From contig JBHLRP010000019.1 of the NCBI GenBank assembly GCA_048882485.1, positions 1-52,216 of the forward strand: a stretch of 52,216 nt of DNA, in the 5' to 3' direction. Shown in pieces: positions 948 through 32,533 of this stretch (positions are counted from its first letter, which is position 1; every line of letters begins with the position of its first letter). The position numbers and the translations under genes were made by a program. The notes beneath the pieces are model-generated. The model was given only the letters and a program-made list of their open reading frames with translations, did no database searches and was not told the DNA's origin. This DNA is from Candidatus Thorarchaeota archaeon. GTDB taxonomy: Archaea > Asgardarchaeota > Thorarchaeia > Thorarchaeales > Thorarchaeaceae.

Positions 948-3900
948 ATGCGAAAGCCTGCTGCAGCGTTAATGCTGTTCATTATCTTCCTCCTCCCTTC
1001 TGTGGGGAGCCCCGATTTCAATGGGGCGATTCCTTTTCTAGACGACGTCAGGAATCATGAAAACGAGTATAATGATGCGGGCTGGCAGGATGCTTCATCA
1101 GGGACCGGAGCACCAAGACCAGTTGACTTCCAAGGCATGGCAGTTTCAAGCGGGACCTCTGTTATTGATGCAGACCACCCATGGATTGTTGGTATCGATC
1201 CGCCTTTGGGTTGGAGCTCTGAACAACTAGAAACACAGCTTGACCATCTCTCAATGTGGGTTGATGATGTGCTAGTCAATCCGAGCCTTGACGCCAATCA
1301 TGAAGAACATTGGATTCTTACTGATCGTCCCGACTACAATTACGATCCATTTTATGTGCCTGATGGGTGGACAATCATAAAGAAGGATGCACCTCCTAGT
1401 GGAACCGGACACCCTCAACACGGCTATTTCGAACTCAACGGCAGGTCCGGAGAAGGATATGATGCTTCCATAGGTTGGAGGTTTGATGCAAACTGGAATA
1501 CTGGCGCCATCTTGGATCCAACCAAGGGAATCTACATCAGTCAACAGATCCCTGCGCCTTGGAGAGAAGTCTACTCTGCTGAAATCACTTTCCGGTATTA
1601 TATATCCAGCCTTTCCAATTTGGATGACACGGCTCATGTCTTTACTAGGTTGGAAGGCTATGTCACTAAACACCATGTATATGAAGTTGGCACTCCCACT
1701 GACACATGGTTACAAGCCAAAGCGACTGTCCCTGCTTCTTATTTGCAGTCACTAGAAACGAAGGATGCATTGCTCTTTGACATTGGTGTTGGGACAGACT
1801 TGAGTGGCAATCCTCCTGCCAGCGCGACCCATGAAATGTACATAGACGAGATTGAGTTTAGGCTTCTTGTCCGACCTTTCCCTGAGGAAATCAACCTCCT
1901 TGCAAATGGAGCCAGAGTGACGGGATCAATCCAAGGAAGTGTTTCACCCTATGTGCCCGATGGATCCAACAGAGATTGCTATAGTGCAATTGACTCCAAC
2001 GGAGGAACGGGAGGTGTGGATCTTAATGGCTACTCCGATTTCGGATGGCTAGATGTGGGTATAGACGGAATGGATTGGCCAAGTGCATTCGCTTATCAGG
2101 TGGGACTTCAGTTTCCCTTGAACGTTCCCCAAGGTGCAACCATTACATCTGCCATTCTGGAGATTGAAACGCCCAGTGGCGCAACTGGTGATCCAGCTGT
2201 GCGGGTCTATGCTGCGGCTGAAGATGATGTCACCGCTTTCACCACTGGATACCCTCTCCTCCCGGATAGATATGATTGGGTGAACACCAGCGTATTCTGG
2301 AACCCAACAATAGCGGCTCCAGGAAGGTATAACACACCTGATCTATCTGCACTAATTCAAGAAGTCGTCAGTAGACCGGGCTGGACAAGTGGAAACTACA
2401 TCTGTATAATGATTGATTATGCATTCTCCAGTGGGCTGACCAATTACATTCAAATCAAAGGATCTACTGGATTTCCTCAAGGGCAGCTTGCCCAGTTGAA
2501 TGTTGACTTCACATCTCCTGACCCCAAAGATGCCATTCCGAGCTTCAGATACAACAAGAACATAGTCCTCGACCATAGAAAAGTCATCGCAAACTTGCAG
2601 AACTTTCCAGTATTGGTAGATATTTGGGATGCCGATCTGCATCTAGATGTTCAACCTGATGGGGATGATATCGCGTTTCTATACGATGGCCAAGTAATCC
2701 CCCACGAAATTGATGTCTTCGACAAGCTAGGAAATGGGACCCATGCCCATCTCTCTGCCTGGGTGAATTTGCCTTATGTTTCATCTACTCAAGATACCAC
2801 AGTAGTGATGGTCTATGGAGATGGTGATATTGGAAGCCAAGAGAAAACTGTAGATGTTTGGGACTCAGACTATTCTGCAGTATGGCATCTCAGTGAGAAT
2901 CCAGCCCAACCTCAGTGGGACTCAACATATGCTGACTATTTGCCGCACCAACCACAAATTTTGGATGTGACTTCACACGAGAGTAGTGGTTCATCATATG
3001 GAAGTATGACCTCAAATGACCTCGTTGATGGATTCATTGGAGAAGCAATCGATCTTGAGGGGTCGAATGACTATCTAGATTTTGGTAATCCAACCGAACT
3101 ACAGATGAATGGTGCTTTTACGGTGGAGGCTTGGTTTTATGCTGATTATGTTGACAATGACTATTTAGTGGTAAAATCAGGCGAATCCAACTATCGAGGA
3201 TGGGATATCAGTTTTGATAACGATCCTAGCATCAGTCCTGCGGGATGGGTCATGTTTCGGTGGAGTCCGGATGGAGTTGCTATGGATCTTGTTGGATACG
3301 AACGCGTTGATACTGCTCAGTGGTATCATGCTGTAGGTGTGTTTAGTCCTTCGGAATATGCCAGATTCTATCTAAATGGAGAGCTTGTTGGAGAAGTAAC
3401 AAGTGGAATACCTTCGACAGCCAATGATCCTAACCGTCCCTTGAGAATAGGCCGGAGATCAGACAGCGCTGGCGCTACATCATATTTTGACGGCATTGTC
3501 GACGAGGTGCGTATATCGAGTATTGCCAGATCTGACGCATGGATTAGGACCCAATATAGCAATCAGAGAAACCCAGAACTATTCATGACTGTCAGTGAGG
3601 AAGGTGTCAATTTCCTGTACAAGAAAGACATAGTCGTCGACCATACAAAGGTTGCGTCGGACCTGACGAGTTTCCCTATGTTGGTTGATATCTTTGACAT
3701 AGACCTGCGAACAGATGTACAGGCTGATGGGGATGACATAATGTTCACATCGAATGGCAGAAGTCTTCCTCACGAGATAGAGCTTTTCGATCAGCAATAC
3801 AACTCTACACATGCTCACCTCGTTGCGTGGGTCAAAGCAGATCTATCATCAGTCACTGATACTATTGTGACAATGTACTATGGCAATCCCTCGATAGGAA

Positions 3901-6900
3901 GTCAGGAAAGCCTTGCTGAGGTATGGAGCAACAGATATACTGGTGTTTGGCATCTTGCGGAATCTAGTGGTAATGTTCAAGACTCAACTTCATATGGTCA
4001 AGAAGGAATTCCGTTAGGTGGAGTATCTTTGGGAGCTCTGGGCAAAATAGGCTATGCCAGCGATTTTGGCGGGATTGATGGCTACATAAATATGGGAGAC
4101 CCTGCAGATGGCCATCTTGATTTTGGCTTAAACAGTTTTACCATTTGTATATGGCTAAGGATTGATGCCAGCACAGGCACTTGGCAAGTTCCTCTCAACA
4201 AAGGACATCCCAGTGGTCTTGATAGTGGTTATAGATTTGAAACCAACACGCTTGGGCAAAGCATCTACTTCCAGATTAGTGATGGAATTAGTTACGAATC
4301 CACAAATAGTTACAGTGTTACATTCGGCGAATGGATGCACCTTGTTGGTCGTGTTGATCCAAGCACCAATGAAATGCGTTTGTTTAAAGATGGAGGCTAT
4401 AGTGGAACAGTAGATATTAGCGGCATTGGAAGTGTCTCCACTACAGACAACTTCACAATCTCACGCGGATTGTTTTCTCCCAATCCAGTTGATGGATTAA
4501 TCGATGAGATCCGTATATCAAGCACTGCACTTTCAGATTCCTGGATTATCACAGAGTACAACAATCAATACGACCCATCAAGCTTCTATTTAGTTGGAGC
4601 AGAGAAACTTGTTTTGCCTTTAGAGGGGCAATACAAGAAGGATATAGTCATTGATCATACCAAAGTCGATTCAGACCTGACTGGGTTCCCATTATTGGTA
4701 GACATCTATGACACAGACCTCAAATCTGATGCCCAAGCAGACGGTGATGACATCATCTTCAAGTCAGGCACAACATTCCTACCTCATGAGATAGAACAAT
4801 TCGATCAAGATTACAACTCCACTCATGCTCACTTAGTCGCTTGGGTCAAGACTGACCTCTCATCCACGGCTGACACGACGGTCACAATGTATTATGGCAA
4901 TCCTGAAGCGACAAATCAGGAGAATCCAAATGCTGTTTGGGATGATAATTATTGGGGAGTCTGGCATCTCGGAGATACCTCAGGTGCCGCAAAGGATTCT
5001 ACATCCGGAGGAGCTGATGGCACTCTAATGAATGGCCCTACTCAAGCAGCTGCTGGCCGAGTTGGTTATGGATATGACTTTGATGGTGTTGATGACTACC
5101 TAGCCTTACAGAATGCGAATACACAGTCCTCCGGTACATACTCATTCTGGGTCTACCCTCACAACTATCCTCCTGGACCCAATAGCGAGGTCAATTTCGT
5201 GGGAGCGAATGCGTACTACAATAGATTTTCCTATTATAATGGCAGGATTAGAATCGAAACAGCAACAGATGCCGAGTACTTTAATTTCGCTTCAAGCTCT
5301 ATTTCAAATGATACTTGGTACCATATGGTCTTTGTGAGATCAGGAGATTTCGGAGACCTGTACATAAATGGAGTCTGGATAGAACAGGTTGAGGTTGCAG
5401 GAGCAAATACTCTAACAGTCAATAGCATAGCTGGCACGGATGACCTAGACAGAATGGTTGATGGTATCATGGATGAAGTCCGGATTTCAGGAGCCCCCCA
5501 TTCTGCGGCTTGGGTAATTGCAGAATATAGAAATCAATATGATCCAGCTAGCTTTTACTCGGTTGGAGCTGAAACAATTCTCCAGCCTATTGAGTTCACA
5601 TACAAGAAGGACATCACCATTGACCATACGAAAGTCGGTGCAGATGTAATGGATTTCCCAGTGTTGATTGATATATATGACACAGATCTAAGGACGGATG
5701 TCCAAGTTGATGGTGATGACATCGTCTTTGCCAAAGATGGTTTTGTTCTTCCGCATGAAATTGAGCTATTTGAGCAATCATATAACACCACTCATGCCCA
5801 TTTAGTCGCCTGGGTCAAAACTGACCTATCAGCCTCGTTTGACACTGCTATTAGAATGTATTATGGAAACTTCACCGCCCATAATCAAGAGAACCCATCC
5901 GCACTATGGGGAAGCTCGAATGTTGGTACATGGCATTTAAGTGAGGTTGGAGATGGATCTCCAGATGAATACATAGACAGTTCGCAGTATAACAATCATG
6001 GTCAAGGGGGTATAGGTACTCCTGCTGATGTTCCAACAAGGATTGATGGAAAGATAGGCTATGGACAAGATTTCGATGGCTTGGGAGATGTAATATCCCT
6101 CGGGACCTCAGACACCCTGCAACCATCGAGTCTTACTTGGTCAGCTTGGGTGAGGAGGACTAGTTCATGGGCATCGAAAAGAATGGCTCTCTTCTACACA
6201 AAGGATACCTGGAATGGTCCGGGCTGGTACGTCCAAATTGATGACGTTTCTACTGGAGGACCCAGCATTCCCAGGGTTTTGCTAATGGTTGTAGACGGGA
6301 GCAATTTCTTTACATACAATGGAGTACCCCTTGACACACTCTATCCTCTTAACGAATGGGTACATCTAGCAGCATCGTTTGACTCAACAACAAATGCGAT
6401 GGCACTCTATGTGAATGGAGTTGCACAGCCTTTGCAGACATTCGGAACTCCTGATTCCATCACTTCGACAAGCGACACTAAATTCGTTCCGGGAAACTCA
6501 GGACTCTATGTGGGTTCCATGGATGAAGTTCGTGTAGCCAGCATAGTTCGCTCACCAGAATGGATTCTCACTGAATATAGAAACCAGAATGATTCAGCGA
6601 GCTTCTATACTGTGGGAGCAGAAATATTCACTCAACCAATTGAATTTGCATTCAAGAAGGAGATAGTTGTTGATCATACAAAGATTGCTGCAGACCTGAC
6701 AGACTTCCCAATGCTTGTTGACATCTTTGACAGTGATCTTAAGACGAAAGTACAAGCAGATGGTGATGACATCGTCTTCAAAATCAGCGAAACTCTGCTT
6801 CCTCATCAGATTGAGCTATTTGACCAGACCTATAATTCGACTCATGCACATCTAATCGCGTGGGTTAAAGCTGATCTATCATCCTCGTTCGATACGACGC

Positions 6901-9900: not shown

Positions 9901-12900
9901 CCTACAACTCGACACATGCACATCTTGTCGCTTGGGTGAAGATAGACCTATCCTCCTCAGTGGACACTACAATTACCATGTATTATGGAAATCCAAGCAT
10001 AAACAATCAGGAGAAACCATCTGATGTATGGAATAGCAATTACGTTGCAGTTTGGCACTTTAATCAGGACCCATCATCCACTAGCATCTTGGATAGCACA
10101 ATGAATGGGTACCATTTGACTGCACAAGGATTTGGCTCGGATCAGCGAGTCTATGACGGGAAGCTAGGAACATCGATATCCGTTGATGGGATAGATGATA
10201 GGTTTGGCGTCAACAGCATCGCAGGGCCAATTAATGACATGACATTTCAGACCTGGTTCATGCTTGATAATGCATTTCCTTCCGGAAGTGATATGCATCT
10301 ATTACGGGGCAATAGTCTCACGAATAATTATCCTATGATCAGATTCGCCTCCAGCTCTGGATTGATTGTTACACACATGGAAGTCACATCAGACGTTGAT
10401 GAAACCTGCACCGGAAGCAAGAGTTCCTGGGAAGCGGACACATGGTTTCAATTTGCATGGGTCAGATCTACGGCTGCTGTAAGATCATATCATTACGTAA
10501 ATGGTTCATTGGATGCAGAGGACAATAGTGCAGATAATGCAAATCCACACTTGGCGTGGGACCAACTAATGCTCTTGTCCGATTTTAGCGCTGGAAATAT
10601 GTGGGGACCCGGAGCAATATCAGAATTCAGAATACTCAACGTGGTCCTCCCTCCTGAATGGATTGCAGCAGAGTACGCAAACCAGAACGATCCTGCCAGT
10701 TTCTACTCCGTTGGATCAGAGGTACAAATTGTCATCCCAGAACAACCAAGTGAACCAAGCTTGCTGGACGCATCAGGATATAAATTCAGCGCTAGCTCCA
10801 GTGTCGGCGTCACAATTGGATTTAGAACATCGCTTGGAATTCACACATCGGGGCTTAGTTACACAGATGATTATCTTCCAGGCACATCGTTCTCAATAGT
10901 CAATGACAGCTTGGCAATCTGGACCGCAAATGTATTGGTGTCTCCTCCTCCTGAGATAGAATCTATTTCGTTTGAGTTATCTTATCCAGAAGGTGAATGG
11001 TACCCGTTCTCGGTCAAGAGCCCCTCAGGAATAGAGAAGACATTTGCAACTGACTGGACATGCTTCGACGGGAAGCTTGTCGTTGCTTCAACAGCGATTG
11101 ATGAATATGGTATGTGGCATATTCGTTTCCAAGACAGGAATCATGTTTTTGACACACAGATGGGTCTGTCCGGAGGGCCTTATTCTCCATCAGGCAATTT
11201 CTTGATAGGAGAAGAAATCCAGTTCCGGATATGGAGTTCTGGAACCATGAGCTCAGGCATATCACTTGATTTGACTGATCCATACGGCTCAACCTGGTAT
11301 TCAGGCTCTGCGACATTTCAAGGCCAAAAATTCGCTCTCCCCTACTCCCACAGGAAATATCTCACTATCAGCCATGAAAATGTCGCTACAGATCTTGTCA
11401 ACTTCCCGGTGCTTGTTGACATATATGACACTGATCTACGCACAGATGTTCGTGCAGATGGTAGAGACATTGCCTTCGCAATTGGAGAAGAAACACTTGC
11501 GCATGAGATTGAACTCTTCGATCAGACATTCAACTCGACACATGCACATCTCGCAGCATGGGTTAAGGTCCCATTGCTATCTGGTTCAAGTGATACCGCG
11601 ATTAGCATGTATTACGGCAATCCCATAGCGCCAATAGTCTACGATTCAGGACCGGTATGGGATTCTGGCTATCTAGGCGTCTGGCACCTTGCAGAGAGTG
11701 GAACTGGAGCACTTGATGAATATACAGACAGCAGTCAATACAAACATCATGGCCAGGGTGGAGAAGGTCAAGCCACGTATGTGCCAACCCAAGTTTCCGG
11801 CAAGATTGGCTTTGGCCAAGATTTCAATAATCTTGATGGAAACTATGACCTTATTGACTGCGGTGATAGCCCGCTTTGGAATATTGACGGGTATCAACTA
11901 ACTCTGGAGGCGTGGGTCCAACATGATATCACACCTAACACCCACATCTATGGAATAATGAATCACAAGGGGTGGTATAACGGATATAGCCTCTTCATCA
12001 ATGAGGGAGGAGTATCGACTCTCAAGCCCGTCTTCAACGTGCAAGGAGAGACCCACCAGTTAGTGGGAGCTAATGATGTTATGGGAGGATCTTGGCATCA
12101 CATCGTGGCCACGTACGACGGCAGCTTGATGAGAATCTATGTTGACGGAGTGCAGGATCCAAATGTTCTCCAGAAGACTGACGCAATACTACCCTCCACA
12201 GCTGAGCAAGGCTTCTGGATTGGTCATGGAGACCAGCCGAAGGATGTTGTCTGGAGTGCCGAATATGAGGGGCAAATCGACGAGGTTCGTATCTCAGATG
12301 TTGCACGTCCTGCTGGATGGATTGAAACACAATTTAAGAACCAAAATGATCCAAGCAGCTTCTTTTCAATTAGTATAGAGCAGTCTCCAGGATATTCAGA
12401 ATCCGCGGCAATCACACTTGATTCTTCAGCCCAAGCAGGAGTCTGGCAAGCCACAGCTCGGTATTACGATGATGGAGTCAATGTTGATCAAAGTGTGGGA
12501 ATATTCAGTAGGAACTTTATTGTAAAACGAGGAGCTTCAATGAGCCTAACGGCGCCTGGTGATGCAGTATCGGATGGTATCTCAGCCAAGCTCATCGGTG
12601 AAGGCTTGTATGTTGAATTCGATCTTTCCGATACACTAACCTCTCTACCAATCAGCGGTGCCACAATGACCATGAACTGGACTGTCAGTGGTGCTCCTAC
12701 TCAGATTCAACTCAATGATTATGGCGATGGTAGCTACGGAAGAGTCCTAAATACAACAGACTTGGGTACTGCTCAACGTTGGCGTATTGAACTTACGTCT
12801 TCTCACCAGTTCTATGGTGATGCATTCAATGTCTTCTTTCTGGATTTATCGCATCAGACATATCTCACATATGAACCGCCATCAGCTGCTCCATACGGTG

Positions 12901-15900
12901 ATGACTTCACAGTAAAAGTCACCTTAAGAGACTCATTCAACAGCCAGCCGCTTGCTAATGCGGGATTCGCTAGCAATGGGACCATCATAGGCGCGCCCGT
13001 AGATTATGGCAACGGTACATATCTCTTGACTATTGACAGCTCGGCACTCTCAACTGGCACACATGCATTTAGATTCACAGCAACCCCTGCGGATTCCTAC
13101 CTCTTGAGCAGTTCAATTGATGTGCAATTCGATTATCGAGAAGTTTCTACAGATGCATATGCACTTAGCTCTGATCCAGCCGAAGTCCCATGGGGAGAAC
13201 AAGCCTCTGTCACAATACACTGGTATGATTTAGACCACTCAGGAATTGGAATAGAAGGAGGTACTGCTAGTATCATTCCCTCCGTTGCTCTTCAAAAAGC
13301 AGATATTGGTGGAGGGGATTATGCTCTCACAATTGACACGAGTTCGTATCTACCAGGCGCCTATGTATTTGATGTGACTTTCTCGAAGGCAAACTATGAG
13401 GATGCAACAGCAAGTGTTACGGTGATAGTGAAAGCACATAGCACTTCAGTAAGTGCAGATTATAGTGCGTCCACGCCAGTGGGAACAAGCACCTATTTCG
13501 ACATCTCATTCCTAGATCTCGATGGGGGTTCAGTTGGAATTGGCGTTGGCAATCTGAGTCAAGTGACTCTGGATTGGGGAAGTGGACCGCAAGCATTCTT
13601 CCCATACGGATTCTGGCTGGATACAAGTGCTTGGTCAATAGGGGTATATACAATCAACATCACGGTCTATGCAACTACAGCACCTCGATACTATTCAGAC
13701 GCAAAAATCTCCGTAAACCTGGAAATCAGAAAGCTTGAAGTCTATGTGAGCTGGGAACATCTTGAGCCGTTCCCGAACGGTGATGACTTCGTTATGTTTG
13801 CTCATTTGAACATCAGCGAACCAGGTTCGTCAATTGATGGAGACCCCATTAATGGACTAACTCAAGCATACTTCACGGCAAGGAATGAAACTGGCTGGCA
13901 ATACACATTTGAGAGCTTTGCATCCCTTGGCGAGGGACGCTACCAGCTTGTCATTGACCAAAGCAACTTCTTGGAAGGAGAATACACTATCGTAGTGTAT
14001 GTCGACTTTCTGCCTGCAGAGAGCTATCACGATTCACAGACGCCAGTGATAACATTCACCTATAGGCCAATCTTGACTTATTTGTCGTCTGATGATTATC
14101 CCAGTGTGACAACAACCTACGACACAAATGTCACCATCACCCTGAATTATGTAGACATAGACAATAATGTCAATATCACCACAGGTTCGATAGCAGCTGA
14201 AGGCGCATCAATCACATGGCAACATCTTGGCAATGGTGTTTACGAAGTATTAGTAATTGTCCAAGGATGGAATCTCGGAACACACGAAGTCAACATCACA
14301 GCAGATGCTCCAAGCTATCAAGCGAAGACACTGACATTCGAAGTGCTAGTCCAGATAGCTTATGCCTATGCTCGTTCTTCAGATTCTTCGATAGATCTTC
14401 CATTAGGTGATACAGCAGTCTTTTACATGGACTACTGGGACATAATTCATGATGGGCCTATTCTTGATGCATCAATCGACCACAACTGGACCCATGCATT
14501 GACTGTGATTTGGACAGGATCGCAATACAGAGTGGAGCTGCCAAGCCTCCACACAGATTCGCTGGGTAGCTATTTCATCTTGTTCAACGTGTCAAAAGGT
14601 TCGAACTATCAGTTTGGCTACTTCAATTTGAGCTTGACACTCAGGACTCACTACACAGAGGTGAGATTCGGCAGTGCAGTTGAGCCCACGACCTATATCG
14701 GTATGGTCAATGTTTCTCTATACTATGGTGACTTGGACAACGATATTGGAGTTGCTTCGCAATACATCAATGTCTCTGTTTATGGAGAATCTGGATGGAT
14801 CGACTCGACCCTCGAAAACGACACAGCTTCGGGTGATGGCTATTATATCATTAGATTCCCAGCTTCAATACTTGGAGAGAGTGGAATTTACAATTTCACC
14901 GTCTATGTCAATTGGACTGGACCCACTCAGCAGTTCTACAATGGGATAGTTAGAACATCAGTCAACATCATTGGTGAAGAATCGGAACTGAGTCTTGAGG
15001 ACTCACCCGGTCCTACTCCATATTTAGAGAATATGAGCTACACCTATTTCTATGATGAGCTGTATAGCGGAGTAGGGATATCAAACGCAACTGGTGATGT
15101 CTTCATCTTCATCGAGTTCGTAGGTGAGTCCGTTGATACTTCCTTAGTATCGATTTTGGAGGGTTTGCCTGGGTATTACACCTTGGAGTTCAACACAACC
15201 ATATTCGCAAGGCCAGGTGTATTTACCATGGTTGTGCAAGTGAACTGGTCTGCATCTGCTTCTCCATTCTATGACAACCGAACTGATACAATTTCAGTGC
15301 GAGTGATTCCGAGGAACACTGTAGTATCTGTGACTCCACCTGACAGCACAGCCTATGGCATTAATGCCACCTTCTCATTCTCGTATGATGACGTGTCAAA
15401 TGCTATTCCTGTCAAAATTCCCAATGATGCAACGATGACTGTTGTAGTCAACCTGCCCGACTATTCAATCAGCTATAATTCTACAACTAGGCAGTTCCAT
15501 ATATCCTTCAACACTAGTGTTCTAGGAGCGTCTCTTGGGAACAAGCAGTTCACCATTAGCATTACGTGGATTGGCTCACCGTTCTATGCAAATATCACAG
15601 CAAGAACCATCTTTATCACAGTTGCCAACAGAGAAACCTCATTCGATTTCGCAACACCCAGTCCGACTCCATATGGAGAAATGGCTGCATTCACTGTGAC
15701 CTATATGGATGCAGCAGGAGCGATTCCTAGTCCTATTAATGATGGAACAATAGTATTGTACAACGACTCTCAGCCAATTCCGGTTTCGTTCTACAGCTAC
15801 GTTCCTCTTGGAAACGGTCAATACACAATCGAGTTGAATACAAGCTACTTCTCAAGACCGAACTCCTATAATCTAGAGATTCAAATCACCACGCCCCACT

Positions 15901-18900
15901 TCTATTATCTTGATGCCACAGGCTCACGGACACTCATTGTGCGATATAGAATCACCACTCTCACAGCTGAATCAGCTGGAATTGTTTCTTACAATTCGTC
16001 AATCCCGTTAGTATTGCGCTATAGTGATCTATTCTCTCTTGCACCGATCAGCAATAGCTCCTTACTAACAAGCATAGAGATTCTCAATGGAAGCTCTTGG
16101 ATCTTCACATCAGATTGGCGTAGCGTTCCCCAAGATTATCTAGTCACTGTGCAAACATTCAATCAAATCCTTGATGTTGATACAGACTATGTGCTATGGA
16201 TTCGATTTACATATGCAGACGCAGCGCCATTCTACCTTGCTGCAGAAACTTTCGTATCCTTCAGACTCAGGGAGCGTACGACATATCTAGATGTCACTGA
16301 ATCACCACTGCCTACTCCCTATCTTGACTTTGTCAATTTCACTGTTGCATATCGCGACCTAGAGTCATCTACGGAGATTGGAGGTGCAAACATTGTGCTC
16401 TCTATTGACGCAATTAATCTGATAGAGGGCACCGAATACATTCTGCAGACAAGCGGAGATGGTATCTATCATCTCTCGATTAATACCACCGCAATAGGAA
16501 TTCCGGGCGTCTCAAAAAGCCTTGTAGTAAGTGCTGAGTGGACCTCGGGAGCTCCCTATTACACGGATTCCACAATTTCCTTGACTGTATCGGTGGTTGT
16601 ACGACCCGCAAGTGTCAGAATTATCATCTCGCCATCACAGGTAAGGTTCCTCGATAACATCACATTCACGTTTAGCTATAATGATGACAATACAGATGAT
16701 TTCATCACATTAACAAAGAATATGGTATCAGTTTACAGCGGGGGAAGCCTCCTCCAGAGCAGCGACTTCACTTTGTCTTTTGTTGGTAATGGATATAAAA
16801 TTGGAATCAATTCAATTATTTTGAGTCCGGATTTAGTAACCAATTGGAATGTAACAGTGTTTGTCGATTGGTCTTCCACTGTTCCACCGTACTATTCGGA
16901 TGATGCAGCATCGGTAGGTGTCACAGTTGTCAATAGGATTGGATCTGTAAGCCTTGACAATGCTCCTACAACTCCAATTGGCGACAATATGACACTAGCA
17001 TTCTCCTATGAAGATCAAGACAACGGATTGGGAATTGGTGATGCGATAGTCGTGTTTGATTGTCTAAATCCGAGCGGGCTTGGCGAGAATGCTGACTTCT
17101 GGATAGTTAGGGGTGTTGGCCCTGAGTTTGGTGAATACACAATCCTGGTAGATACAAGCAAGCTTAGTGGAGTTGGGCTATACACATTCTCCCTACGTCT
17201 TCAATGGAATCAGTCCATCGCGCCCTATTATCGGAATACCTCCGAAGTATTTCTCATTGGTTCTGTCAGATTGATTCAATCGCAATTGGATTATGAAGAT
17301 CCCATACCAACAACGGTACCCATTAACGACAATGTGAGTGTAGTCCTCACGTTTACTGATTCAGACCACTTGCTACCGATAGCTGGAGCTGAAAACAACA
17401 TCAGTGTCACTTACAAATCAGATGGTTCTGTCCCGTCGATATGGAGTATAACTGTTGTCGTTCCAGGCATGTACGAACTTGTGGTGAATTGTACTGATGC
17501 AGGCTCCGCCGGTACAAATGCACTTGTGATACAAGTTGACTTGAGCGATTATCAATTTGCTGAGGTCCAAGTACCTATACAGATTCGGTCAAGGCAAGGT
17601 GAATTGACGAAGGTAGAATCACCTGATGCTTACTTTGGTGAACAGACCTATGCAATTGTTGAACTTGTTGATATTGATGCATCATCTGCACCAATACATG
17701 ATGCTACACTGAATCTAATATGGCCTGAAACTTCAAGCTACGTCTATATCGGGAATGGGATGTACAACGTTACGCTTGACACAACGACATTGGATGCAGA
17801 TCTCTACACCCTTGTAGTGAGTGCTCAAAAGGCAAATTACTTCATCCCAGAGATTTCTATTTCAATAAGGGTCCAGAGTATTCCGACAGAGGTAATTTTG
17901 CCCCAGACCGTCCCAGATGTCTATTGGGGAGAAAGCGTTTCGATATGGGCTCTCTTCAATGACACCCGGAGTGGCACTCTCATTCTTGGAGCCGCTGTTA
18001 ACTATCAGTTCGGCATATTGAGTGGAAGCCTTGCAGAGGGTCCACCTGGAAATTACTCGTTTACGATTGATACTGGAAACCTTCCCCTTGCTACTACCTA
18101 TCTAGTGTCGATAACTGCCAGGCTGGATAATTATGACACAGTTTCAGGGCAGATCACCGTGAATATATTGAGATTGAATCTTGAACTTACAATAGTGGAT
18201 GGTCTGAATAGTCAGGAGCTTTACAAAGGTGAACCAATAAACATTACTGTGTTTGTTCGCGATGTATACAATGATGTGCCTCTAACGGGGGCTACGGTAT
18301 CAGCCACATGGGTCTTTGATATGACTGGTGTGTCCTTGATGCCAGTTCCGGGAATGAATGGATATTATACGGGGCTCATACCAACGGTAGCGGCGAATAC
18401 GAAGACATATTCTATTGTTGTGAGCGCTGAAAAGACCAACTATCTCACAATGACTTCCCCTGCAGAAGTCAATATCAGGCAGATTCTGACCAAGGTGAAT
18501 CTAGATCCATTGACTGAAACTTATAGCAATCAGGTCTTCGATTGGACCGACACTATTCGAATTGGCGTATTCGTACTTGCACCTTCTTTAAACGACACTG
18601 GATTGTCAAACTGCACAGTAACTTGGTCACTTTCTGGAACATTCCTAACAGGAGAATTCTTGAACGGTTCATCAATTGAAGGCCCAGGCTACTTCTATTT
18701 TGACTTCAATACTTGGGAGCATAATGCAACCACGTACACCCTGAGGTTTACAGCATACCCATTGGTTGGTGCCTATGCTACTTCTAGCAACATGACAACC
18801 ATAGCAATCAGACTCATTCAGACAACAGTTGAATCCACCTTCGTGGCACCGAAGGTGTGGGGCTGGGCAGGTTGGGTGAACCTGACATATTGGAACCTTT

Positions 18901-20558: not shown

Positions 20559-23500
20559 TGTCCACTTATTCTAGCGTCGCCTCTTCGAGAATTAGGAATC
20601 ACACAAGGCGTATGCCATTTAGGCTTGTTATGATAGGAATGCTGATCCTGCTCTGCTGTCCCATTCCTGGATTCTTGCCCGCTCAGAATGGAGATAGGTT
20701 CTCATCATCTCAAGAAAGAAACACGAGCGTATTGGCTTCTTCGGGAGTTCAATCCTATGGAGGAAGCGGGGCCTCCCAGAGTGTGACACTGAATGGGGCG
20801 GTTTCCAATGATTCTCAAGGTATTGTTTTACTTGACTCATCGGCACCAACTCCGGCAACAATAAGCGGACCTCAGGGGTGGACCGGTACCTCCTTGAGCG
20901 GATCGATTAGCCAAATCTCAACTTCATTCCAACCAATTAAGAATGGGCTTCTTGACACATACCACACAGAACGCACCATTAATTCCGGTTCACCATGGAA
21001 TGCAATGGAGTATAATGTCCCAGATGAGTGGAGCATTATTGAAGAAGGTGAATCGACCATTCATCCATACTATGGACGCCTTTACTTCCATAGCTATTCT
21101 GGTTCAGGTCGAGACGGATCAATGGGATGGAGATACACTGCAACCTTCGGAACTACAAATGCCATTGATCCAAGCATGAAGTTGTATCTGACCCAGCGTG
21201 TGCAATTGCCATACAGAGAACTCTATGGGGCGCAAATATCACTCTACTATTATGTGCGAAGCCAATCGACTTTGAACGACTACTTCTACCTGTTTGTCCG
21301 AATGGGCAATTATGTGGCTAAATTACATCTATTCGAGTCTGGAGACCCTACTGATCAGTGGCTCCAGTATTCGGTGCAAGTGCCAATGTCTGCCTTTGAT
21401 GCATATCCAATACCTGGAACATTGGATGTCGACATAGGCGTGGGGACTGACTACTCTGGAACACCATCTTCTACTGTTGATCATCAGTTGTATCTTGACG
21501 AGATCGATGTAGTGTTGCAGGCAAGACCCTTTCCGGAGCAGATTGGTCTGAGTGCGAATCAATCTATAATCACTGGTTCCATTCCTGGAAGTGTTTCCCC
21601 ATATGTTCCAGACGGGGCTTCAAGAGATTGCTTCAGTCGCTCTGACACTGGAATCAGCACTTCCAGTGCGTTAGAGGTTGGTGTTTGGAGTTCCAGCGGT
21701 ACATCTTGGAATGATGTCATCAAATATCAAATTGGAATCCAGTTCCCATTGGATATACCTCAAGGCGCGATTATTACTTCTGCGGCGTTGGAGGTAGAGG
21801 CATTGGGGTACTGGGGTGGAGGGAATAATTCACTTCGAGTTTTTGTTGCAGAGGAAGATAATGTCGCACCTTTCACAAATGGGCTACCCAATCTGGAGAA
21901 TAGGTACACTTGGAGTAATACAAGTGTCGCATGGATCCAAGATACTTGGGAGAACTTTTTCAGATATAGAACACCAGACATGTCATCGCTTGTACAAAGT
22001 GTGGTATCCCGTTCCGGTTGGAGTAATGGGAACTATATCTGCATCATGATTGACTACATGAACTCTGACCAGTACCGCGATTGGAACTCTATACGGGGCA
22101 CATGGGGCTATGGCGGCCTAGACTTGGCTACATTTTACGTCGACTTCCTAGTACCTCAAGAAGACGACACTATTTCCATCCTTGAATACAAGAAGGACCT
22201 GACGATTGACCACACAAAGGTGAGCTCAGACTTAGAGGACTTCCCGGTATTGGTGGACATCTATGACAGTGACCTCAAGACTGATGCTCGACCAGATGGG
22301 AAAGACATCAAGTTCGTAATTGGCTCACAAACACTAGACCATGAAATCGAACTATTCGACTCTAACCATAATTCAACACACGCACATCTTGTAGCTTGGG
22401 TGAGGGTTCCTTTGATGTCTTCCTCAACTGACACAACTGTCACAATGTCATACGGAGCTCCAGATGGAAGCATCCCAGAAAACCCACATAGGATTTGGGA
22501 CGACTACAACAGCGTTTGGCACCTCTCAGAACAGTCTGGCAATGGCTCGTTCTTAGAAGACTCAAGTCAGAATTACCACAACGGCATGCCTGTCCAGACA
22601 ACCTTTATGCAGAACGCGAAAATTGGTGCTGCCCGGTACTTCCAAGATGCGGCTGGCAATTACATCCCCTTCATCGATGGTGATAGTATTCTTGACGGCT
22701 GGACAAACTTCCAGTTTTCCTTCTGGATCTACTTCGATTACGCAAGTGATGCCGAATGGACCAGTGTAGAGCCCAGAATCTTTGAGAAAGGCACAAGCGT
22801 CACTCTATGTAGAACATTCAGGAACCCAACAGGGTGGCCAGCTGGCCAAGCCTCGTTCCAGCCCGACATGCATTTTGATGGCGGATACACCAGCTACCTG
22901 AATGTGTTAGTGAAACGTCAGACTTGGAACTACATTGTCTACAAGTATGAGAGCACAGGAGACGGAACATTACATGCCTACAGTTATGCAGACGGCACAC
23001 TTACAGACTCAAAAGCTAATTCAGGTATGGGAGCAGGAGCCAAGCTGAGAGATGATCTAAGCATATTCTCTCTTGGTCTATATGGAGGAGGCCAAGTTCA
23101 CCTTGGAGGAATTGACGAGTTTCGTACAATAATGGGTTACAAGTCAGCCGACTGGATACAGACTGAATATGCAAATCAGTACGACCCATCCAGCTTTTTC
23201 AGCGTCGGCTCCGAGCAAAGTGTGCAATATGGACAAAACGCAACGCTGTTCTTCACCACAGATTCCTCATCTGTCGTAAGTATCCTTCCAAGAATGACTC
23301 TTGGTATCACCACTCAGGAAACCTCTCTAGATGCAAGCATGATTCCAGGGACATCATTCTCTGTTGCCAATGGAACTGAAGCAACATGGACTGCGAATAT
23401 CTTGATTAATCCTCCACCAGGAGTCGCCAACATCAATCTGACTCTTGACAAGCTCTCAACTTGGACGCTCCAGAGTGTCACTGACTCCTTTGATAACATA

Positions 23501-26500
23501 CGGACATCCGAAGTGACGAGCACAGCGACGCAAGTCACGGTTCCATCATCTGTTATTGATGTCTATGGCGTCTGGAGCTTTGATTTTACTTCCGCAAATG
23601 AAGCCAGTAATCTTGAATGTGCTGTTGGAGCCGGTATATATGAAATGACAGCTGTCGTGCAGTCAGGTCAGACATTGGACTTCAGAGGTACAGCTTCGAT
23701 CATTCCCGGTTCATCAATGAGACTTGCACTTGTTGATCCAAATGACCAGGTCTTTTATTTGTCAGATGATTCTTCTCAGGATGGAAGTGGGCAGTTTGAA
23801 TGGCTAGCTATTGCGGTTGATGGAACCTGGCCACGTGGAACATGGATTGCGTATGTTGATTTCAATGACACAGCTGGGGCAGTCCCACTTTACGTTGGCA
23901 GATACAGTAGAGAGTTCATTGTGAAACATACCTCATCCTTAGAACTTCAGGCACCCGGCGATGCGGTTGGAAATCAATTGTCTGTGAAGACAGCTGGCGA
24001 TTTATTGCTAGTCGAAGTGCATCTAATGGACACTGACACCTCTGAAAGCATATCAGGTTCCACAATGATGATGAATTGGACCATTTCAGGTGCACCGACT
24101 CAGGTGCAGTTGGAGGACTATGGAGATGGCTCTTATGGCAAGGCTCTGAACACCTCAGATCTTGGCCTCCCAGGGATGTGGAGAATCAATATCCAGTCAA
24201 ATCATCCCTATCTTGCTGACACATCGACATTCTTTGATTTGGAGTTGTCGCATCCTACATACTTAGCATATGAAACTCCAGAACCCACCGCTTACACTGA
24301 TGATTTCGCCGTCAAAATAACTCTCTATGATGCTATAAACGGCGACCCATATCCATCTGCTACTATCACCTCGAACGGGACGCTAGTTGGTGTCCCAACT
24401 GACTATGGAAATGGTACGTACTTAGTCCAAATCGACTCTGCAGGTCTGGAATTGGGTGCATATGGGTTCCAGATTGATGCGGCTCCAAGTCAGAGTTTCG
24501 TTCTTGGAAGTAGTGTAGATGTTGTCTTTCTCTATAGAAAGATCAGCACAGAGCTTGTTCAGATAGGAATGACCCCAATCAGTGTTCCCTGGGGCCGGAC
24601 TATCAATACCACACTAGAGTGGCAGGACTCTGACCATGGAGGATTGGGAGTTTCTGGAGGAACACTGAGCGGCGATGCCACATTCCAATACACTGACCTA
24701 TTGGATGGGACTTATTCCATTGAGATTGACGTTAGTGGCTACTCGGTTGGCACTTACCTGTTCAATTTCTCCATAGCCAAGTCCTACTATGCTATGGATC
24801 AAATTACAATTGCAGTGAGCGTTGTTCCGCATAGGACATCCATAGTCGCGACCTACAACAGCTCCGTCGCAGTAGGTACTAACATCTCCATCAGTCTAGC
24901 CTTCTACGATTTAGATTCGGGTAGTGTAGTAATTCCAGGTAACTTCTCATCAGTTCAAGCACAGTGGAGTGGCGGTTTAGCTCCATTTGGCACAAAGGAC
25001 TTCTGGCTCCATACTGACGGATGGGCTCTTGGCTCCCACACTTTGAATCTGACTCTGTTTGCTACAAACACGCCAAGATTCTATTATGATGCAAACACAG
25101 CTATCATCATAGAGATAAGAAAGGCTACAACAGAGCTCGATTGGACGCCGATTGATAGCTTTCCAGTGGGTGACGATTTCGAAATCACGCTTTTCTTGAC
25201 TGTGAATGAGTTTCTATCAATGTATAATGGCGACCCAATTAATGGCCTTGATATTAGCTATTTTGATGCAAAAGATAAAGATGGCACTCCCTATACAATC
25301 AAGAATCTCGTGTTCATTGGCAACGGAGAGTATCTACTGTCAATTGATCAGGCGTTCTTCTCAGTCAATGCTTATACAATTCGGATCTTTGTGACATTTG
25401 GAGTAGCAGAAAACCACACCAGCACTCAAACTCCCATCATCAATTTCGTATACAACCAGGCACGGAGCGAACTGACTTCTCCTGACTATCCCACCACGAC
25501 TACATCGTATAGCACAGACGCTTCAATCACTCTTGAGTTCATAGACATAGATCGTGGGCAGGGAATTGATACTGCAACCGTTACGGTTGAAGGTGCCACT
25601 GAATTGAGTGAGAACTGGATAAGTAGTGGTAGGTACAGAGTTGTAATTGATACATCAAGCTGGAGCATAGGAGTCTACACTGTGAACTTTACAGTTTCAG
25701 CTTCTACCTATCAGAGTAAGACCATCTCGATAGATATTCAGGTGCGGCAAATCAAAACTTATGCCATTTCAACAGTAGGTTTCCTTGACATCCCAATTGG
25801 TGATTCAAGGATTTTCTATGTCGATTACATGGATTTGGACCACGACACCACAATAGGACCCGGGGATGGTGCGAGCGGCTCATGCAATTGGACAGTCAGC
25901 CACTATGACATAACATGGACTGGAACTCGCTGGAAGGTCACCATCACGACCTATGATACAGATAGTCTTGGGTCGTATCTTCTCATGTTTGATTTCTCTG
26001 CTGGCTCTGAGTATGAGGTAGCCTACTTCAACGTGTCATTAGTCATTCGCACAATTGATACTGAATTGCGACTGGTCACACCTGCAGCACCTACAACGGC
26101 AACAGGGCAGTTACAGATAACTGTCTATTATGGAGATCGTGACCACACAGCTGGCATTGTATCATCAGATGTATCCTGTACAGTGAGAAATAGCACTGGA
26201 CTGCTTGCTATTTCATGGACCAATGGCTCAACTGCTGGCTATTATGATATCACCATCGATGCTTCGCAGTTTGGGAGACTCGGAACTCAACAGTTGACAA
26301 TTATATTCAATTGGACTGGGAGTATACAGAAATATCAAGATAAGTTCATTCTTACCACAGCCGAAGTAGTGGGCGAAGAATCTGAACTCGTATTGATTGA
26401 TGCGACTCCAGCCACTCCGTGTCTCGGCTATATGGATTACACCTTCCTATACATGGATTCATCAGGATCAGGCATCACTAACGACACATTTGATGTGTTC

Positions 26501-29500
26501 ATATACGTAGAATTCAGTGGTGTGAGTGTTGGCCTTTATCAGATTGACATCTTGGAAGTTGATAATATAGCTAATCCGGGCTACTACTCCATTGGATTTA
26601 ATAATTCTATTCTAGGCAGCACTGGCTTATTCTCGATGAGCGTGTTCATTAATTGGTCACAAGGTGCTTGGCCTTACTACACAAACCGGACAGATGTTAT
26701 TTCTGTAAGAGTTCTCCCCAGAGATACTCTGCTCTCCATTGTACCGCCAACCAGTGTTCCGTTCGGTGAGAACGCGACGTTTACATTCACATATGAGGAC
26801 ATTACTGGTGGATCCTCAAGTACCATTGACCATGACGCTGCAATGACTATTGCATTAAGTCTAGCTGAATTCTCATTATCCTATGACTCTATCGAAGGCA
26901 TATTCACAATCTCCTTTAATACGAGTCAATTCGGACCACCTTTGGGTGAAAGGACATTCTCTCTCAATGTGACATGGTCAGGCATTCCATTCTTTGCCAA
27001 TAAGACCGGTCAAGTGATTTCTGTAACAGTGACAGATCGACAGACAGTATTGACATATCCAACACCACCATTAACCTCCTATGGTGACAATGTGACATTC
27101 ACAGTAGTCCTCACAGATGTCGCCGGAGCAGCTTCAAAGGGTGTTGAGTTTGCGAGTATTAGTTTCTTTGATGGCGTAATTGAGATACCCCAAAGCTATC
27201 TCAACGTCTTGGAACTTGGACAAGGAGAGTATCTGATTGAACTGAACACATCCTATTATACAAACCCTGGTAGCTTCATGTTGGACATAGTCGCGACACC
27301 TGGATCATTCTACTATCTAGTCAAGACTGGATCACGAATGCTCAGCATTGATCCTCGAACGACGATATTGGTTGCAGAACCGCCAGGTAGTGTCGCCTAC
27401 AATACGTCTCTGACCATTGCCGTTCAATATTTGGATCTTAACACTCTAGACTCAATTGCTAACGAAACCAGCCTCTATACGCATGTAGAGATTCTCAATG
27501 GATCCGGTTGGATATTCACATGCGTATGGCGTCCATCAACACAGGACTACATGCTAATCGTGGAAACATACAACCAAGCCCTAAATGTAGGAACTCCATA
27601 CCAACTTTGGCTAAACTTCAGCACTGAAGACAAGGCACCCTTTTACGAGTCGGTGGAGATCTTGGTACCATTCCAGCTCCGAAACAGATATACTACTCTG
27701 GATGTTATTGATACCGCTCCTCCAACTAGCTATTCAGACCTAGCGAATTTCACTGTTGAGTACAAGGATGCTCTCTCTCTGGCTGGCATTGCAGGTGGAA
27801 CGATAGTCCTCTATCATGGACTCAGTCTCCTAAATCAGGGTGTCGATTATCAGATATCGACTGTAGGGGTTGGCAGGTACAAGATTTCTGTAGACACCTC
27901 TGTCCTTGGCACTCCCGGTATCAAGATAATCACAGTAATAGCAGAATGGTCTGGTGGTGCACCCCATTACAGCGACGCCTCTAGAAATGTGACTGTCTCC
28001 GTCATCGAAAGGCAGACAAGCATTGAGATAACTGTCCCTCCCTCAGCTACACAGTACCTCAATAACATGACATTCGATTTCGTATTCATGGATGTCGCTA
28101 CAAGACTGTCAATCGGAATTGTTGGCAGTGATGTCAGGATATTCAGTGAGGGGATACAACTAGGGACGCAGGATTATAGTATTTCCATTGCAGGCAGTGG
28201 ACTGCGCATCAGTCTTAACTCAACCATCATTAGTGCCTCACTAGTCAACAATTGGAATATCACCGTTGTAGTGGTTTGGACTGGAGGGGCTCCCTATTAT
28301 CAGACTGATCAATCTACTGTTTATATAGATACAATTTCAAGATTGGGCAGTGTAGAATTGGATCAGGTTGTGGATACCCCACTTGGTGACGATATCACGT
28401 TGGGTCTAACATTCTCAGACCAAGCCAAAGGCATTGGCATCACAGGAGCTTCTATTGTCTTTTCTTGTGAGGAAGTCTCTGGACTTTTGGAAGGCATAGA
28501 TTATTGGATAACTGCAGGAGTAGGACCAGAAGCGGGCAAGTACACAATAGACGTGAGCAGTTCATCTCTCGGAGATTTGGGTCTTTATAACTTCGTTCTT
28601 GCAGTAAGATGGAATCCGTTAGTTTCTCCATACTACGGTAATGTCACTAATCTGCAGATGGAAGCCGTCGTCAGAGCAATCCAGGTTTCACTCTCGAGTG
28701 ATTTGCCTACACCCTCTGTTGCTGCTTTCTATCAAAACATCTCATTCACAGTTACCTTCACAGATATTGACCACTCAATAGGTATATCCGGCGCAGAAGG
28801 AGCAATCTCCTTGACATATGTGTCTACAGGGACTGAGCCATCTATATGGTCTATCTATGTAATTGCTCCTGGTGCCTACAATGTTTCTATCAATCTCGCT
28901 GATAACCTTGCCACAGGACTTCAGTATATCAAAATCAATATCACACTGTATCCCTATCAATCAATAGCAACCCAAACCGCTGTTAGTCTCCGCAACAGAG
29001 TCGGAGGAATATCTGCTGATGTTCCAGCAGCCAATTATGCTGGAGAGCCCACTTATGTTCTAGTTTACCTAGTTGATGACGATGCTGGAGGAGTCCCTCT
29101 CAGTGGAGCAACACTCATTCTTGGGTGGGGTGACTTTGCATCATTCATAGATCTTGGTGATGGAAGATACAATGTGACTCTATTTACTAGCAATTTGGGC
29201 TTTGGCTCGCAGCCTCTGACGATAGACGCCATTCTGACTCATTACTCAATCAGCTCGCTTTCATTAGACATTGAGCTATTTGCAGTTACTTCTGAATTGA
29301 TTGTGACGTGGAGTGGACCGAGACCCTATTCTCCACTAGAGATTTACTGGGGAGAGCCTATTACAATCTACGCAGCTTTCAATGACACTCTAAGAAATCA
29401 GTTGGTCGCATCTGCTACTGTCATCTACTCATGGACAGCTGGATCAGATGTCTTTGGGCTAACGGGTATGCCAGGCAATTACACAGCAATTGTGGATACA

Positions 29501-32500
29501 AGTCCTGGTAGCGCTTATGACATGGTTATTATCGGAATAGAGGGACAAGCACCTAATTATCTAAACGCCTCCGCTCAGGTGTCATTCCAGCTGCTACCAA
29601 GGCCGATGGATGTGATTCCCGAAGATAGTAGATATTTCTTCACGGTGGACTATGGAGGACAGGCATCAATAGTTGTGTACCTTGAGGATTCTGAATCTGG
29701 GAGCAAGGTGACGGACGCCAATGTTTCAGCTAGATGGACATTTGCTAACCTGACTCTGACAGAAGTGCCTGGACAACCAGGATATTACTCAATCAATATG
29801 CCCACCATTGGTGCAACGTTTGGCACCTATGAGATACATGTTTCTGCCTTCAAGGAAAACTATGCGAATGCAACTGTTACCATCAGCATGAGCGTGTCCC
29901 AGATTAATTTGGAGATGTGGCTTGACAGTGCCACTGCTGCATACGAATACACTCCAGTCTATTGGTCGGAGGTAGTCAGAATTGGAGTTTACGTGCTAAC
30001 ACCTGCATTGAATTCTTCAAATCCCTATGCGACTGGACATTCTAATTGCACAGTAAGATGGTTCTCACCGGAGCTAGGGTTGAATGGAACTCTCTTGAAT
30101 GGTTCAATTATTGGAGGACCAGGATACTACTACTTCTTCTTCAACACTAGTGATAGCACAGCTTCGGTTCATAATTTTGTCATATCCGCAGAACCGCCTA
30201 ATGACGACTATACAGATGCTGAGAATTCAACAACCATCCTTGTAGAGAATCTCCCTACTGTCATTCAGTCACCGGGCTCCCCAGAAGTCGTATGGGGTTG
30301 GACAGGGTACATAAACTTCACCTACTTCAACACATACCACAGTGTGGGAATAGATGCGAATGTAGCTTCATATCAGTGGGCGGGAGGCTCTGGGGTACCA
30401 TATGACTTTGGCAATGGCGTCTATGGAGTTCCTTTGAACACCAGTACAGTTAGGCCAGGGACATATCGAATCACAGTAGGCTTCCAGAAGATTAACTATA
30501 ACGACCAACAGCTCACAATCGCATTAAGCATAGCCCCAGTGCCTACAGAAATAGTGGTCAACCTACCTGATGAATATCGGATAGGAAACACTTGGGAGCA
30601 ACTTCAGGTGCCTTATGGAGATGTCCTTAATGTTGTTCTCGTCTTCAACAACACTTGGGATTCACGTGGAGTATCCGGTGCTATATTCAATGAATCGGTT
30701 TATTCAGGACCTGGCTTCTTCGAGGAGCCCCTAAATCTAATAGCTGGAGAGGGTGGGAACTACTCCTTCGTGTTTGACACATCTCAGGGGACGCTATATT
30801 GGGAGTTCGAATTCAGCATTCGCTTCTCTTTGGAGAACTATTCAACAGCAGCCCTTACATTTGTAGTCACAATCGTTGAAATTCCAACAACAGCAGAGGT
30901 CTTAGGTCCATCAATATTCTCGCTTTCATACAGCAATGAAACAACATTCTGGATCCAATATTCTGACAATTGGCCTGGACATGGCGGCGAGGGAATCCCC
31001 GGTGCAACTGCCACCATCGAAATCACTAGTGAAAATCCTAATTTGGCGACAATTGAGTTCAGCGGGGAAGATGCAGCTAATCCTGGAATGTATCAATTCA
31101 AAGTAGTCAGCGGTGCGACACCTGGTGTCATCTATGTCACAATACACTTCAATAAGTCGAATTATGTATCAAACAATGTTGATTTGACAATCTCTATCAG
31201 TCCGTCTGATGCAGACATCATGATGCAGACAGCTATGACAGTAGGAAGTATATTCACACTCATCATCCTCCTCAGCGCCATTGTGTGGGTACGAGTTATC
31301 AGAGTACCAAAGATTATTCGTACGCTGAGTGCTCAAATCAGAAGTCTGCGAAGAAGACGAGTCCCGAAGCCAGCAGGAGAAGTATTGAGCAGACAAGAGC
31401 TAATAGCACAGTTATTCAGAGAGCTCACTGAAGACTTGAAAATCGACAAGAAGGCAGAGATGATACCGCCCGAATCGGTGACTGTCGATGTCCCTGAGAT
31501 TGAGCAGCTTCTCCTAGACTTGGCCATTTTGACAGACATGACTCCGGAGGAAATTGATGACTTCCGACGAGATCTCTCCAAGATGAAGCTGAGTCAGCAG
31601 ACCAACTTCATTACCGAGGTCATAAAGCAGGAAGTTCCTCGAGTTGCCCAAGCAGAAGAGAAGTCATTTGAGCAGGTGCTGGAAGATGTTCGGTTGGAGC
31701 GACAGAGGAGAATCGGTGGTGAAGCGGCACCGACAGTGCTTCCAGGCTTTGATATTGAAGCTGAAGAAGCAGCTCTCTTTGCTCCAATTGAGAAGCCCAC
31801 TGTGGACGAAGATCATCTCAGTGAGAAGGAATTGCAGGAGATGAAAACAGGCCTTCTTGAAAGAGGGCTTCCAATGCATGAGGTTGATGCTGTGATTGGA
31901 CAGGCCAGGAGCCTGCCCAAGGATGTGGCTGAGATGCTTCTCAAGAGCTTTGGTTCAGCTGTTGACATGCATGAAACTGAAGTAGATACGGCAAAGCTCA
32001 GCGATATGGAGATCGAGATGCTCAGACAGCAGCTAGCAGATGAAGGTGCCAGTGTAAAGGAAATTGATAAGATTCTAGAACAGGCACGAGAAGTCCCAAG
32101 AGCACTAGCAATGGAGCTACTTAAGGGATTCAGACATGAGCAGGAAACTAGGAGAGCAAAGAAGAAGAAGAAAGAGCCCGTTGAAACCATGTCTGAGGAT
32201 GATCTTGTTGCCTTAAGAGGCCGTCTTTTCATCAAAGGCACTCCTGAGCATGAGATAGATGCAATAATTGAGCAGGCAAAGACTGTGCCCAAAGAAATGG
32301 CTGCTGATTTCATCAGACAGGTTGAGGAAACATCTCCAGTTTCAGTTGCAGAGGAAATCGAGTTCGAGGACACCCTTGGCGAGATGGAAATAGAAGATTT
32401 GCGCAACGAACTCAAGAAGAGAAAGATTCCAGCAGTAGAGATTGAGGCGATAGTCGCACAGGCAAAGAACCTGCCTAAAGCTCTTGTGCAAGATCTTCTT

Positions 32501-32533: not shown

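Follow-up and report, generated by a model that had tools for sequence, protein, structure and literature searches.

Overlapping genes for two giant paralogous surface proteins in Candidatus Thorarchaeota, one with variable and one with nearly constant lectin-fold modules

The window analyzed here, i.e. the whole stretch of 52,216 nucleotides, forms the start of a 58-kb contig in a draft genome of 3.96 Mb (G000) from Candidatus Thorarchaeota; assignment to Thorarchaeia is supported by the genes nearby, which cluster with proteins carrying the name Ca. Thorarchaeota. The window contains two giant genes, A and B, which encode collinear paralogues of 37-41% identity, and a leucine-rich-repeat gene which is retained directly 5' of A in two species (Table 1). 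The stop codon of A and the start codon of B share an ATGA at 20555-20558 (-4 nt), and an SD-like word, GGAGGTGA, is located at 20541-20548, 6 nt 5' of the ATG of B; in the reading frame of A the same word encodes Gly-Gly-Asp. The open reading frames therefore confirm what a preliminary description of this DNA had stated, namely that two giant paralogs overlap at an ATGA preceded by an SD. The 3' end of the 16S rRNA was looked for in order to compare the anti-SD with this word, and was not found. A sigma-70 and terminator scan 3' of B, which is ill-suited to archaea, returned nothing. Further along the window, a gene on the minus strand (42102-44048) lies downstream of a beta-CASP gene, and its syntenic gene in L062 matches the Arf/Ras/Roc GTPase families.

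Table 1. Positions of the genes and protein features in the window
Feature	Position	Strand	Remarks
Leucine-rich-repeat gene	176..799	+	in a related species, flanked on either side by an A-B pair of this locus
Gene A	948..20558	+	6536 aa from ATG at 948; type I membrane protein; variable partner
A signal-peptide-like N-terminus	948..1010	+	basic start and hydrophobic stretch
A head, common with B	1095..2537	+	by homology CBM4-like and CBM96-like jelly roll; folds from B model
Nine A DUF2341+LamG modules	2544..12368	+	Pfam and module-built profile
A module starts	2544, 3612, 4629, 5595, 6645, 7674, 8667, 9717, 11343	+	
A modules 2-5, exchanged cassette	3612..7673	+	LamG parts 32-45% identical at same positions in G005
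A stalk	12375..19742	+	23 beta-sandwich units, each about 105 aa; many N-glycosylation sequons
A transmembrane helix	19776..19841	+	one TM helix
A cytoplasmic tail	19842..20555	+	basic juxtamembrane helix and helical core, then an acidic linker and a single three-helix repeat
A/B junction	20541..20558	+	SD-like GGAGGTGA and ATGA stop/start overlap
Gene B	20555..32533	+	3992 aa; type I membrane protein; constant partner
B head	20756..22174	+	CBM4-like (Z 12.0-12.6) and CBM96-like (Z 13.7-15.5) folds
B single DUF2341+LamG module	22184..23203	+	model; kept across B orthologues
B stalk	23777..31189	+	23 units, in register with A
B transmembrane helix	31217..31288	+	one TM helix
B juxtamembrane helix and helical core	31289..31729	+	homologous to those of A
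B four three-helix repeats	31805..32521	+	flexible linkers

Like A, B starts with a signal-like N-terminus. The head that follows is common to both proteins and contributes two further carbohydrate-binding-type folds, which the preliminary description had missed. In A, Pfam recognizes 9 Laminin_G_3 and 8 DUF2341 stretches, and a profile made from the modules themselves gives 9 of each; the order of a DUF2341 followed by a ConA/LamG domain is found with Pfam E-values of 7e-42 and 2e-153, and the ESM Atlas matches agree. For the single module of B, Pfam shows a weak DUF2341 only, and the ConA/LamG fold was recognized in a structure model of residues 66-1255 of B (pLDDT 89), with Z about 18 and an rmsd of 2.6-2.9 over about 190-210 residues. 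Top fold matches to the receptor-binding sub-domains of neurotoxins reflect the common ConA fold and not a toxin. A segment of about 190 aa in A (about 10755-11327) has its B counterpart after the single module of B. The reciprocal counts given in the preliminary description, 9 modules and 1 tail repeat in A against 1 module and 4 tail repeats in B, were found again. The division of labour that it proposed, between a ligand-binding A and a scaffolding B, would be only partial, as A has the same tail core and B has three lectin-type folds against eleven in A, so that B is not devoid of ligand-type domains.

Misassembly of repeat arrays is possible in draft genomes, and the gene pair might then be an artefact or else a recent neutral duplication. 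However, the modules of A are only 31-49% identical as protein, the longest exact DNA repeat is 26 nt, and independent assemblies agree, with A and B of the same lengths as in the window recurring on an independent 81.9-kb contig and in another species; moreover, A and B are 41% identical and belong to old separate clades. The explanation is already refuted by these data and its probability is next to nil; the repeat array, of which the preliminary description had considered that it could be an assembly artefact, is real.

The stalks of A and B are collinear and of matching length, as had been proposed: they are 41% identical, with 23 units each and an offset of at most 17 aa over 2000 aa. Being built of tandem beta-sandwich units of about 100 aa, both are Ig-like stalks. 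The model of the stalk base is all-beta and matches the MG domain of alpha-2-macroglobulin (Z 11.6, rmsd 2.2, 92 of 97), and paralogues show weak matches to CarboxypepD_reg and SpaA.

The cytoplasmic tails are helical and comprise 240 aa in A and 415 aa in B; throughout, the conserved cytoplasmic domain spans 240-440 aa. In the model of the B tail (pLDDT 84), a basic juxtamembrane helix and a helical core precede four loosely linked three-helix bundles; the single three-helix repeat of A lies at about 20385-20537. No clear family emerged when the tail was searched against Pfam, PDB sequences, Foldseek, VIA-align and ESM Atlas features, and comparison of the three-helix repeat with UBA, death-fold and other tail domains yielded generic three-helix bundles as the best matches (Z up to 6.2). 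Homology between the tail core and the terminal repeat is visible by eye in distant members and weak by profile. Within the genome, the three-helix repeat is restricted to the A/B family. A 180-aa protein with one TM helix and no ectodomain (G000:C2:88870-89409, plus strand; L084:4871-5410) contains a diverged copy of the juxtamembrane segment of the family (E 8e-5); it is present as a single copy in 26/26 genomes of the family and is a candidate accessory chain or adaptor. The juxtamembrane motif also terminates proteins named Loki- and Odinarchaeota: P0177, P0169, P0173, P0161 and P0158 are surface proteins with shorter tails which combine a TM helix with P-K-x-x-R-K...K-G-K-x-P, a motif that might serve to anchor or sort proteins throughout the Asgard archaea.

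Nine paralogues with the common TM helix and tail are encoded in G000. The tail was found in all 27 genomes of the family (27/27); matches are strong in one other Asgard family (7/7), partial in a family with small genomes (4/4) and weak elsewhere, and out of 1.8 billion only about 170 cluster representatives attain E 1e-10. The tree of the members comprises four groups, i.e. the A-type and B-type proteins, a short class of about 2600 aa (S1 and S2), uncoupled long members and uncoupled short-tailed singles. A-type and B-type proteins form separate clades (support 100/99 and 98/98); their pairs were seen in two genera only, and within these in some but not every genome. The short coupled pair, by comparison, occurs throughout the family with a fixed length; its G000 copy (G000:C1:183912-199408; L043:1913-17409) encodes 2592 and 2589 aa with 17 stalk units each, and S1/S2 is a better model for biochemistry than A/B.

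Several other members deserve mention. P0190 and P0205 are A-type proteins labelled Ca. Sifarchaeia with tails 76-77% identical to that of a Thorarchaeia member, which points to either a mislabelled bin or a transfer. In the distant Asgard family f12 (L035), tail-bearing genes stand three or four in tandem, and the single junction read is 194 nt long and shows no overlap. An uncoupled member of 5500 aa (G002:C19; L039:9001-20000) lacks LamG modules and has repeated matches to Pfam MP (PF01107, E 3e-9). A further adjacent pair of large surface-like proteins (G000:C1:211212-225879; frames of 2189 and 2763 codons) is without the family tail.

The preliminary description suggested to check whether the tandem pair and its module counts are conserved in relatives, and both are. 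Wherever the DNA downstream of an A-type gene could be read, the gene overlaps the start of a B-type gene by 1 or 4 nt and an SD-like word is present (14/14, leaving out the A-type gene of G004, which is cut by an N gap so that no B is readable); no orphan A or B occurred among these cases. Across the pairs, A-type proteins have 5-9 modules and 1 repeat, B-type proteins 1 module (once 2) and 4 repeats. S1 is followed by S2 in 15/15 cases from eight or more genera, S1 and S2 genes again forming separate clades, and the junctions of all coupled pairs that were read range from -4 to +4 nt. Pairs are also duplicated as a whole: G005 has A'B' and then AB on one contig, and G012 has S1 S2 S1 S2. In G000 the second pair is split between contigs (A' and B' at L045, the end of C16, and L046 on C76), and C16, C76 and C19 together show, gene for gene, the order of G005:C8, A'-B'-x-LRR-A-B.

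By the criterion for translationally coupled pairs, a -4 or -1 overlap or a gap of at most +10 nt (PMC10666635), A and B with -4 nt are a candidate for such a pair. In Haloferax, 45% of the short-overlap pairs encode subunits of one complex compared to 5.6% of distant pairs, an eightfold enrichment, yet over half of the short overlaps do not encode such subunits (PMC10666635). ATGA-type overlaps are found for 158/976 co-oriented neighbours in the genome, 82 of them with an SD-like word; the overlap alone is thus ordinary in this genome, and what exceeds chance is its conservation.

The preliminary description would have been contradicted by homologs that usually occur singly or unlinked. A and B types were always paired in the 14 readable cases, but G017, G023, G024 and G025 each encode the long form by one gene only, so that pairing is derived and not obligatory for the family, in which no hetero-partner is needed. 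In G017, G023 and G024 this single gene lies at a syntenic site, where G000 and G020 have two uncoupled copies; those of G000 (G000:C2:109802-131888; L047-L048) have 22 and 21 stalk units. A and B arose by duplication of the gene that is single in other genera, and their lineages have since remained adjacent, overlapped from stop to start, registered in their stalks, and duplicated or lost as a unit. Pairing has had at least two origins, and the pairs persisted after they had formed.

The stalks of coupled and uncoupled lineages behave differently. All 54 members of the coupled clades (54/54) keep the stalk within about 20 aa of the class reference over 2100 aa, at only 32-44% identity between partners, whereas at least 8 whole-domain changes were counted in 45 uncoupled members, the tree lengths being comparable (26.4 for the coupled, 23.9 for the uncoupled members). 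The chance that all eight changes fall on uncoupled branches is about 0.003, or p 0.02-0.23 for the long class alone, a weak contrast. Four uncoupled tandem pairs, which are separated by spacers of 144-200 nt with pyrimidine runs, are 42-44% identical, i.e. no less similar than coupled partners, and yet differ by 1-2 domains. Among the uncoupled members, five stalk states occur within the long class, and at least five among the short-tailed singles. The stalk register suggests a side-by-side assembly and is the best sign of it in these sequences. However, coupling originated no more than two or three times and several uncoupled members retain the stalk register of A without a partner, which limits this argument.

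The lectin-fold modules vary on one side of the pair. Between G000 and G005, A is about 90% identical, with 92-100% in the LamG parts 1, 6, 7 and 9 and 79-100% in the modules outside the exchanged cassette, and the fifth LamG part of G005 is 81% identical to the second of G000. The LamG part of the B module, by comparison, is 95 (G005), 80 and 77% identical across B orthologues. A total of 202 LamG segments fell into 31 clusters, and among 26 arrays, 23 of them distinct, the first and last modules are fixed and the inner ones variable, drawn from about twenty types; six pairs of module types were found in both orders. Inner LamG modules of A are thus gained, lost and reordered, whereas B is nearly constant. 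Crossover probably takes place in the DUF2341 halves, whose DNA is 56-75% identical. In P0187, P0204, P0206, P0078 and A' (L045), a DUF2341-borne module that matches Polysacc_lyase (PF14099) sits on the same spacer as the other modules and is highly conserved between arrays. In addition, three S1 genes encode an NHL propeller near the tip; in both classes it is thus the first gene that takes up extra cargo.

Among archaeal giants, huge proteins with LamG domains are the most frequent, and their function has been described as not understood (PMC11573180). A and B resemble these Laminin_G_3 proteins, and the DUF2341+LamG proteins of bacteria and archaea, in their giant size, N-terminal LamG, DUF2341+LamG unit and Ig-like stalk, but add the conserved cytoplasmic domain of 240-440 aa, fixed gene pairs with registered stalks, and a module cassette shuffled in one partner only. 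A LamG domain at the end of an Ig-like rod is also known from TafC, the tip subunit of haloarchaeal Tat-fimbriae (NF052521; PMC11821415). NF052521 reached 84.7 bits on three stretches of the LamG part only, far below its cut-off of 410 bits for the whole protein, and A and B do not fit the small subunit with a Tat signal that such a fimbrial tip would be. Tafi are polymers of small subunits, whereas the A/B rod is one polypeptide with TM helix and tail.

The analogy to integrins and cadherins put forward in the preliminary description is a likeness in logic, and tests of membership fail on domains, motifs and chain relation. Integrins consist of two long single-pass chains, of which the alpha and beta chains are unrelated, with a beta-propeller and a vWA domain. 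Paired long single-pass chains, a ligand-binding head and cytoplasmic docking would be shared with the proposed A/B pair; A and B, however, are paralogous to each other, their folds are of the lectin type and their tails are folded. Integrins are obligate heterodimers that connect ligand and cytoskeleton; for A and B the support for pairing is genomic. Their collinearity at 37-41% identity rules out non-homologous chains, there is no Pfam match to the FG-GAP propeller, vWA/MIDAS or the Cys-rich I-EGF legs (12 Cys per chain; jelly-roll head in the model), and the long helical tails lack the GFFKR/NPxY motifs of the short integrin tails. Nor did Pfam show a cadherin match, and the stalk consensus is without the DxNDN and LDRE motifs of EC repeats. 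Neurexins and LNS receptors share tandem LamG-fold domains on a single-pass protein, and clustered protocadherins a variable ectodomain on a constant tail. Neurexin and laminin LG folds match with Z 12-12.7, bacterial glycan-binding ConA folds higher with Z 17-18; in contrast to neurexins and cadherins, A and B have no EGF or cadherin repeats and vary by genomic module shuffling. Bacterial giant modular adhesins, whose ligand-binding regions are exchangeable, consist of one chain fixed to the wall or outer membrane. They too have a long beta-sandwich extender and a tip with multiple sugar-binding domains that varies between strains, but no conserved folded cytoplasmic domain or coupled paralogue. 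The parts are thus known already; in the literature searched we found no description of the A/B family, nor of a folded conserved tail, twice-evolved coupled pairs with frozen stalks or one-sided shuffling of a cassette.

We consider the chances slightly better than even that A and B form one long receptor of two chains, i.e. a hetero-oligomeric glycan-binding surface receptor or adhesin with a variable and a constant chain. A homo-oligomeric ancestor would have turned into a hetero-oligomer of A and B, and coupled translation would supply both in about equal amounts. The chains would lie side by side in a rod of roughly 100 nm (23 units at about 4 nm), where contact along the rod would freeze the domain number because neither stalk could lose a domain alone. 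Judging from their fold, the LamG domains may bind glycans. A would then present a changeable panel of glycan specificities, recombined via the conserved DUF2341 halves, towards surfaces outside the cell, be it cells, particles or exopolysaccharide. B would be the constant partner, whose four extra three-helix docking units would form a multivalent dock with higher avidity for a factor in the cytoplasm, by which the complex would be anchored or clustered.

It is rather unlikely, by our estimate, that A and B are separate adhesins which the operon only keeps co-expressed, each chain being a monomer or homo-oligomer and the equal stalks giving a shared reach, so that both tips get past one surface layer or meet a common target. 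Each chain is complete with head, stalk, TM helix and tail, several genera have the single-gene state, overlaps are common genome-wide (16%) and some unpaired members have the same stalk length, all of which would fit; but orphans are lacking among the 14 readable cases, pairs duplicate as units, and uncoupled relatives vary their stalk length freely, which indicates that reach is not generally fixed. Very unlikely to our minds are structural struts of the envelope, in which a spaced coat replaces the S-layer, with the stalk as ruler, the tail as inner anchor and the lectin arrays as decoration. A cultured Asgard archaeon does have complex surface structures and no ordered S-layer (PMC9834061), the short coupled pair is family-wide with fixed length, and the stalks are rich in sequons. 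Against such a coat stand the patchy distribution and varying copy number of the A/B pair and the stalk lengths, which differ between classes within one cell (17, 21-23 units).

What the receptor would be used for is a different question, as glycan capture by a foraging tether, which serves a sediment heterotroph on polysaccharide particles and not in cell-cell contact, is compatible with the two-chain architecture. We regard this as quite possible, if somewhat short of even. In the B model, the folds of the head correspond to modules that bind chondroitin, alginate, hyaluronan and arabinan, and some A-type arrays, including A' of G000, carry the PF14099-matching module; on the other hand, no hydrolase or transporter genes were found linked to the pair in the neighbourhoods looked at, the same folds occur in cell-surface receptors and TafC, and the fast turnover of modules fits cell recognition as well.

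Returning to the two-chain receptor, a broader proposal, which we hold to be unlikely as a whole, is that Thorarchaeia have native two-chain adhesion receptors which evolved at least twice from a single-gene ancestor. Their variable chain would sample ligands by recombining a lectin cassette, their constant chain would couple to a cytoskeletal or signalling factor via an undescribed three-helix module, and, with a membrane-proximal motif shared across Asgard classes, they would account for the complex surface densities of Asgard archaea and for their contacts with partners. Surface structures of Asgard archaea are complex, and these organisms presumably rely on partner contacts (PMC9834061); the A/B family is a concrete, family-wide candidate for these. 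Its predictions are testable: the rod should have a defined length, and one chain should vary while the other stays constant. Some twenty exchangeable lectin-fold modules form a pool in which ligands can be sought, and the conserved tail can be used as bait. In addition, it provides a clean natural case in which a single gene became a coupled pair twice, and in which domain number is frozen in the coupled lineages only.
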